A stretch of DNA of 63,070 bases, counting the filler, from Collodictyon triciliatum (taxonomy: Eukaryota), in NCBI GenBank assembly GCA_043381765.1. It is 33 parts of 33 records of this genome, joined end to end, with 100 filler letters (N's around TTAATTAATTAA, not from the genome) between each part and the next. Parts side by side here need not be neighbours in the genome. Positions count along the whole stretch, not along the records: positions 28,777 to 30,591 come from JBHJMP010010154.1; 32 more parts are not named here. The stretch is one strand, 5' to 3'. The notes under the pieces were generated by a model. It was not told the origin of the DNA, made no database searches, and saw only the letters and a list, made by a program, of their open reading frames with translations. The position numbers were made by a program, and so were the translations under genes. Every line of letters starts with the position of its first letter. Position 1 is the first letter of the stretch. Shown piece by piece: positions 30,459-30,573 of the stretch.

Positions 30459-30573
30459 AGGCTGTCGGGTCTTTCCCGGCAGCCTTCACCACTACACGAC
30501 ACTTGTGAAAAAAGTGGTGAGGCCTTGGGTACCATCGCACCAGGTTTACCATTCGAAAGATGGATACTCCTAG
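30459..30573 (+). ncRNA. Candidate Fanzor omegaRNA scaffold / right end, copy 2 (best-preserved H1 and H2 stems)
   Basis: H1 30459-30485 AGGCTGTCGGG/CCCGGCAGCCT; H2 30486-30520 TCACCACT/AGTGGTGA; H3 30521-30546; H4 with GAAA loop; CTAG at 30570-30573. Confidence 0.65.

Follow-up and report, generated by a model that had tools for sequence, protein, structure and literature searches.

A folded non-coding block at the right end of three decayed Fanzor1-like elements is a probable fossil omegaRNA scaffold

Based on its position, strand, size, and fold, a non-coding block that follows three Fanzor1-like pseudogenes in the 63,070-base stretch of DNA analyzed here (hereafter, the window) is probably the fossil omegaRNA scaffold of an ancestral Fanzor1 element. 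The genes in front of the block are homologous to Fanzor1, the block extends from their stop codon to the right end of the element, its fold is unusually stable and better on the sense strand, and its right boundary is sharp. The omegaRNA reading is the most likely one, and it draws on analogy to characterized Fanzors and on a reconstructed ancestral fold, not on selection or expression. Because all three genes are dead, the block is at best the fossil of a scaffold.

The window is composed of 33 stretches of about 1.8 kb each, arranged in descending length and separated by identical N spacers (N44-TTAATTAATTAA-N44, e.g., 30592–30691), showing that short contigs of a fragmented assembly were strung together; genes on either side of a spacer are unlinked. 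Many large repeat families with start-to-start distances of about 1,900–1,916 bases are apparently spacer artefacts. Repeat finding and alignment placed the three gene copies on separate, unlinked contigs of about 1.8 kb each (copy 1: 9608–11429; copy 2: 28777–30591; copy 3: 49818–51627). The block flagged in a preliminary description of this DNA belongs to copy 2 and lies 3′-terminally in the sixteenth stretch (28777–30591), 18 bases short of the contig end. None of the three contigs reaches the left end of the element. Alignments with related environmental contigs extend to the very first base of the copy 2 contig, and no inverted repeat matching the right end, which could have marked the left one, was found elsewhere in the window. 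Other repeats in the window include a 609-aa ORF of 135-nt tandem units on the contig next to copy 2 (30733–32562, + strand), which may be WD40-like as judged by eye and whose region holds a 300-nt repeat family (6 copies, 63–83% identity to the reference copy). A tandem array with a 12-nt period (39186–39629, at least 24 units) and, on another contig, a repeat family of 16 copies with mostly ~54–59 nt spacing (17282–18959) were also observed.

To place the genes, we compared the longest open piece, 120 aa from copy 1 (10630–10989), with solved Fanzor structures. It matched PpFz1 of Parasitella parasitica best (9cf0; E 9.6e-11), followed by SpuFz1 (8gkh; E 2.6e-4) and, weakly, GtFz1 (E 0.036). 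A protein search returned two longer homologues, P0001 (596 aa, 52% identity) and P0002 (760 aa), and the former shows the same order of similarity to solved Fanzor1 proteins (PpFz1: 2.1e-22; SpuFz1: 4.4e-17; GtFz1: 3.5e-12). The Pfam domains OrfB_IS605 and Cas12f1-like_TNB were detected with scores below threshold, because fragments alone could be scanned. Translations contain the motifs VGVDxGK, VDEFRTSK, CxxC...CxxC, and RDxNS (in three-frame translation VGVD[A/T]GK, CCNCEKE...RCLICKEC, and TRDFNS), of which VDEFRTSK is present in copy 1 and mutated in copies 2 and 3. The full set of a RuvC-like D...E...D and a C4 zinc finger before the final RD is obtained only when the copies are combined. 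Taken together, the motifs, the matches to solved structures, the Pfam domains, and the homology to P0001 indicate from sequence that the three copies are pseudogenes of one Fanzor1 family.

An intact ORF that could encode a working nuclease was found in none of the copies, each of which carries stop codons and frameshifts; the longest open piece on the + strand is the 120-aa piece of copy 1, and copy 2 has no + strand ORF of at least 80 aa. All three pseudogenes lie on the + strand (copy 1: 9967–11109; copy 2: 28989–30453; copy 3: 49818–51082, beginning at the contig edge), and tblastn needs 3–5 pieces in differing frames for each. Along copy 2, for example, residues 94–592 of P0001 align in five pieces in different frames, up to a terminal TAA. 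This stop codon is common to copies 2 and 3 (30451–30453 in copy 2), and copy 1 has a 4-nt deletion there. Identity between copies over the common coding part is 86.2–87.9%, and codon positions 1, 2, and 3 differ among them at similar rates (12.0, 12.0, and 14.6%; p = 0.18), showing that the copies diverged as dead DNA, neutrally.

A 252-nt insertion (50271–50522) also breaks the pseudogene of copy 3; its terminal sequence is AATAAAGGA(n), and on its flanks lies a 14-nt direct repeat with three occurrences. On another contig (45512–45715, − strand) there is a 204-nt copy of this insertion (90.7% identity), and fragments of its tail occur at 49233–49270, 15468–15493, and 49134–49158. The insertion has the look of a short, SINE-like retroposed sequence bearing a target-site duplication; a tRNA-like part was not detected in it.

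As the preliminary description reported, the block lies directly behind the Fanzor gene: in copy 2 the TAA stop (30451–30453) is followed, 5 nt on, by the block at 30459–30573 (+ strand; MFE −45.3 kcal/mol), the candidate omegaRNA scaffold. Its counterparts are located at 11132–11248 in copy 1 (130.7 bits with covariance model R1, described below) and at 51089–51203 in copy 3 (132.9 bits), both on the + strand, giving a non-coding length of 115–117 nt. The right-end boundary of the element falls at 30567–30575 (+ strand), at ...CTCCT or possibly ...CTCCTAGTA. Copies 1 and 3 are identical at 33 of 40 positions before ...TCCT and at 27 of 100 after it. The drop in similarity past H4 described earlier is therefore sharp, and it is seen in this pair of copies only, since copy 2 cannot show it where its contig ends at 30591. 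Copies 1 and 2 further share AGTA past ...TCCT, and 12 of 18 bases are identical between them after the boundary, fixing the element end only within ~4 nt. On the sense strand, the block thus fills the space between the Fanzor gene's 3′ end and the transposon's right end.

Four hairpins (H1–H4), all on the + strand, make up the predicted fold of the block. H1 (30459–30485) has an 11-bp stem and a 5-nt loop, with the arms AGGCUGUCGGG (30459–30469) and CCCGGCAGCCU (30475–30485) in copy 2 and a U.G pair in all three copies; in agreement with the preliminary description, the stem is complete in copies 2 and 3 (11/11 each, one pair being a G.U in copy 3) and decayed in copy 1 (7/11). H2 (30486–30520) and H3 (30521–30546) were likewise recovered as described. 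The former pairs 30486–30493 with 30513–30520 around a 19-nt loop and keeps its 8 pairs in copies 1 and 2 and 7/8 in copy 3, and the latter has 7 pairs and one bulged U (intact in copy 1, 6/7 in copy 3), with a closing G.U pair in all copies and an A-U to G.U change in copy 2. H4 (30547–30566) does form a stem with a GAAA loop, intact with 8 bp in copy 3 only (51177–51196); copy 1 keeps 6/8 pairs, and copy 2, damaged by a 2-nt deletion, 4/8 in register. The consensus quoted for H4 is an idealized composite, as the majority sequence keeps a U.U mismatch there. Overall, 90 of the 100 cells across the copies hold standard pairs; in the majority sequence, 31 of 34 pairs are standard, one is that single mismatch, and two are undetermined. 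The claim that the block consists almost entirely of stems was generous (68 of 117 alignment columns are paired). The H2 loop (30494–30512 and its equivalents) holds most of the variable positions of the block (alignment columns 36–44; by eye), and may form a further apical stem of 4–5 bp in which a C-G pair becomes U.G in copy 1 (also by eye).

Compared to dinucleotide shuffles, the fold is unusually stable in two of the copies: none of 200 shuffles folded as well as copy 2 (z −4.48) or copy 3 (z −3.71). The fold of copy 1 is ordinary (z −0.67, 42 of 200 shuffles as good). When 115-nt windows were slid along the three contigs (74–75 for each), the block was the extreme position in copy 2 (z −4.2 to −5.9) and in copy 3 (z −4.6) over a background of about −0.2 to −0.4 (sd 1.1–1.5). 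Folding of the majority sequence gave z −5.4, −4.6, and −1.8, depending on the tie-break. Stem breaks are private to single copies, suggesting that the common ancestor had near-perfect stems. The fold of the 3′ half of the block is non-unique in the model, with a near-isoenergetic alternative that merges the 3′ arm of H2, H3, and H4 in one long hairpin.

The earlier statement that the block is conserved in all three copies holds in the sense that it is common to them, and this is conservation by descent only. Extra conservation of the block over the ORF was rejected, with an identity between copies of 83.5–85.2% for the block and 86.2–87.9% for the ORF. The proposed covariation check, applied to the three copies, gave no support: 0 of 34 pairs change on both sides, shuffles did equally well (500/500), and shuffled and slid controls covaried no worse than the block. 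Since three copies that diverged neutrally give covariation no power, this result argues neither for nor against the structure. Private changes number 11 in the 68 paired columns (8 break a pair, 3 keep or create one) and 12 in the 49 unpaired columns. Neither these nor the pair changes in the three copies reveal detectable selection on the stems. As a general caution, agreement among decayed repeat copies reflects common descent, not selective conservation.

To search for further members, the block was compared to Rfam, where nothing reached the gathering score and two snoRNA matches (E 0.2–0.33) are due to chance. A covariance model of the block (R1) was run on the window and on 80 metagenome Fanzor1 loci, which came from a protein-based scan of metagenome contigs and are all distant (at most 61% on the best segment, and at most 50% for matches spanning at least 80 query residues). 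In this set the model retrieved the three window copies alone; the only other full-length match scored 13.5 bits (L072; E 0.5). A 19-nt core of the block had no matches in viral contigs, and its 12 matches in bacterial genome contigs reached at most 16 bits with R1 and were taken as chance. Of the sequencing runs that contain parts of this DNA, three were metagenome DNA runs (shares 0.05–0.08) and none was an RNA run; mapped at 80% likeness, the three yielded 69, 8, and 105 short contigs that are 80–95% alike, showing that the family has diverged environmental relatives. In one 255-nt contig from a soil metagenome, position 29714 is joined to 30493 with five other letters at the joint; the contig keeps the block from the H2 loop through H4, and its H3–H4 part is identical to copy 2. 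This single contig (depth 2.1) represents a derivative of the element with an internal deletion.

The nearest intact relatives are three metagenome loci (L027–L029), and the ORF of L028 is intact (665 aa). After the stop codon, the three loci share a near-identical non-coding tail of ~137 nt (L028, 3820–3956) and then diverge fully, which marks their own right end. Their tail is weakly structured (z −1.0 to −1.7) and folds differently, and an architecture common to it and the block was rejected. This difference agrees with the published variation of Fz1 omegaRNAs beyond SL1 (PMC11423790).

The SpuFz1 scaffold is located between the Fanzor1 stop codon and the right end, and its guide is taken from the flank past the conserved region (PMC10432273); in the portions of PMC10530073 cited here, other Fanzors co-purify with RNA of the 3′ non-coding region that adjoins the right end. 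Fz1 omegaRNAs range from 75–150 nt with 2–4 stem-loops, of which SL1 (7 bp) contacts RuvC/TNB, with great variation beyond it (PMC11423790). A Fanzor1 omegaRNA is expected to be a discrete, nuclease-bound transcript that reaches about 14–21 nt into the flank and carries a reprogrammable guide. The block fits this published design in position, strand, size, and foldedness. Its stems have 11, 8, 7, and 8 pairs, none of which is assigned to the 7-bp SL1. On this reading, the block is the right, non-coding end of a DNA transposon that carried Fanzor1, left as three neutrally decaying copies. By analogy only, we infer that in the ancestral active element the block was transcribed in sense as the tail of the Fanzor transcript and processed, and that its RNA folded to stem-loops bound by the nuclease; any assignment of hairpins to the mature RNA would draw on the same analogy. 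This RNA would run ~15–20 nt into the DNA beyond the right end, with the flank as the guide, and any guide would start just past the ...CTCCT boundary.

The omegaRNA scaffold proposed in the preliminary description is thus supported in part, by the Fanzor1 gene, the position, and the sense-strand fold; covariation gave it no support, and the genes are dead. Counted against the omegaRNA reading are the 0 of 34 covarying pairs, the lack of extra conservation and of a family match, and the dead genes, in addition to the different fold of the relatives, the non-unique 3′ half, the decayed H1 of copy 1, the lack of a hairpin assignable to SL1, and a possible role of the hairpins at the DNA level.

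A DNA-level role, in which the hairpins are signals for transposition (for example, H4 and the terminal CTAG as the 3′ end of a Helitron1, or the stems as palindromes near the terminus that a transposase binds), is unlikely but the most probable of the alternatives. Copies 1 and 2 end in ...CTCCTAG followed by T, and H4 stops 9 nt before this terminus. As far as PMC3627910 is cited here, Helitron1 elements have a single 3′-subterminal hairpin and a CTRR-3′ end, with the hairpin expected ~10 nt upstream and a flank that begins with T, and CTAG followed by T is found in two of our three copies. Fanzor1 genes do occur inside non-autonomous Helitrons, according to parts of the same paper and of PMC10530073. 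Helitron-type termini explain H4 alone, not H1–H3; the CTAG terminus is absent from copy 3, and the left end (5′-TC or TIR) that would define a Helitron or TIR element lies outside the window. A palindrome can fold whichever strand is read, and the block in antisense likewise folds more stably than its shuffles (z −2.3 to −3.7). Folding in sense is better still (−4.5 vs. −2.3 for the copy 2 block; −5.4 vs. −3.7 and −4.6 vs. −2.5 for the majority sequence), and the U.G pairs of H1 and H3, fixed in all copies, become A.C mismatches on the opposite strand; together, these features weakly favor a single-stranded sense molecule. End signals and omegaRNA overlap in characterized elements, so that the DNA reading is compatible with the RNA reading. 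It is even conceivable, with low probability, that the block is a four-stem-loop, unusually large omegaRNA whose H4 doubles as a Helitron-type 3′ hairpin with its CTAG end; if so, one DNA segment would serve both rolling-circle transposition and RNA guidance.

Somewhat less probable than a transposition signal is that the block served the Fanzor mRNA as an ordinary, structured 3′ UTR, acting in 3′-end formation or stability and having no guide function. The location of the block right behind the stop codon, on the sense strand and with a stable fold, is what such a UTR would show, but the block reaches exactly to the right boundary of the transposon, a right-end arrangement that is the omegaRNA layout in every Fanzor tested (PMC10432273 and the cited parts of PMC10530073), and no AATAAA signal was seen in it by eye. 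That the stems are functionless chance palindromes carried in a repeat is very improbable: no selection is demonstrable among the three copies and copy 1 folds no better than shuffles, but 0 of 200 shuffles match copy 2, copy 3, or two out of three majority versions, two contigs have the block as their extreme position, and almost every stem break is confined to one copy, pointing to near-perfect ancestral stems.

If confirmed, the omegaRNA reading would extend the known Fanzor1 families by one whose right end is defined and which has a candidate scaffold, a comparatively long and modular one in the lineage nearest to PpFz1, which has the smallest known scaffold. It may help to map the variation of omegaRNA architecture and the stems that are dispensable. 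A scaffold before the right end with a guide from the flank is an already published design, and therefore no concept is changed; because the copies are dead, practical value hinges on an intact family member.

Among known systems, Helitron-borne Fanzor1 elements (CRe-1/2/3; Bao & Jurka 2013, PMC3627910, as far as cited here) come to mind because the CTAG end and subterminal hairpin seen here resemble a Helitron1 3′ terminus. This comparison covers the 3′ end; further Helitron1 features are a 5′-TC left end, insertion into AT, and an autonomous partner that encodes RepHel. ORF-less 'ghost' or non-autonomous Fanzor derivatives keep the RNA end, and the 29714/30493 contig, which has depth 2.1 and shows neither element end, is reminiscent of them. 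SpuFz1 (Spu-1 of Spizellomyces punctatus; Saito et al. 2023, PMC10432273) resembles the family described here in its sense scaffold from stop codon to right end and in being multi-copy with many partial copies. Its scaffold is 75 nt with two stem-loops, compared to ~115 nt and up to four here, and the two show no detectable similarity in sequence or model. The SpuFz1 RNA was demonstrated by small-RNA-seq and RNP pull-down, whereas the block is known from DNA alone; SpuFz1 copies are intact and have 30-nt IRs, whereas the three copies here are dead and their left end lies outside the contigs.

PpFz1 (9cf0; Xu et al. 2024, PMC11423790) is the best solved match of the protein fragment (E 9.6e-11), and its SL1 (ACCAAAG/CUUUGGU; Table S3) resembles the H4 arms (ACCAA../..UUGGU), by eye only. 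Its omegaRNA, the smallest known, is 71–75 nt (SL1 and a 4-bp SL2), and the block is about twice as long; PpFz1 has ~25 nt between SL1 and the guide, compared to 7–9 nt past H4 here. The protein of GtFz1 (Guillardia theta) matches the copy 1 fragment weakly (E 0.036), and its RNA overlaps 17 ORF codons (PMC10432273), whereas the stems here begin past the stop codon. With four stem-loops in ~150 nt, the GtFz1 omegaRNA is like the block in architecture and comparable in size (PMC11423790).
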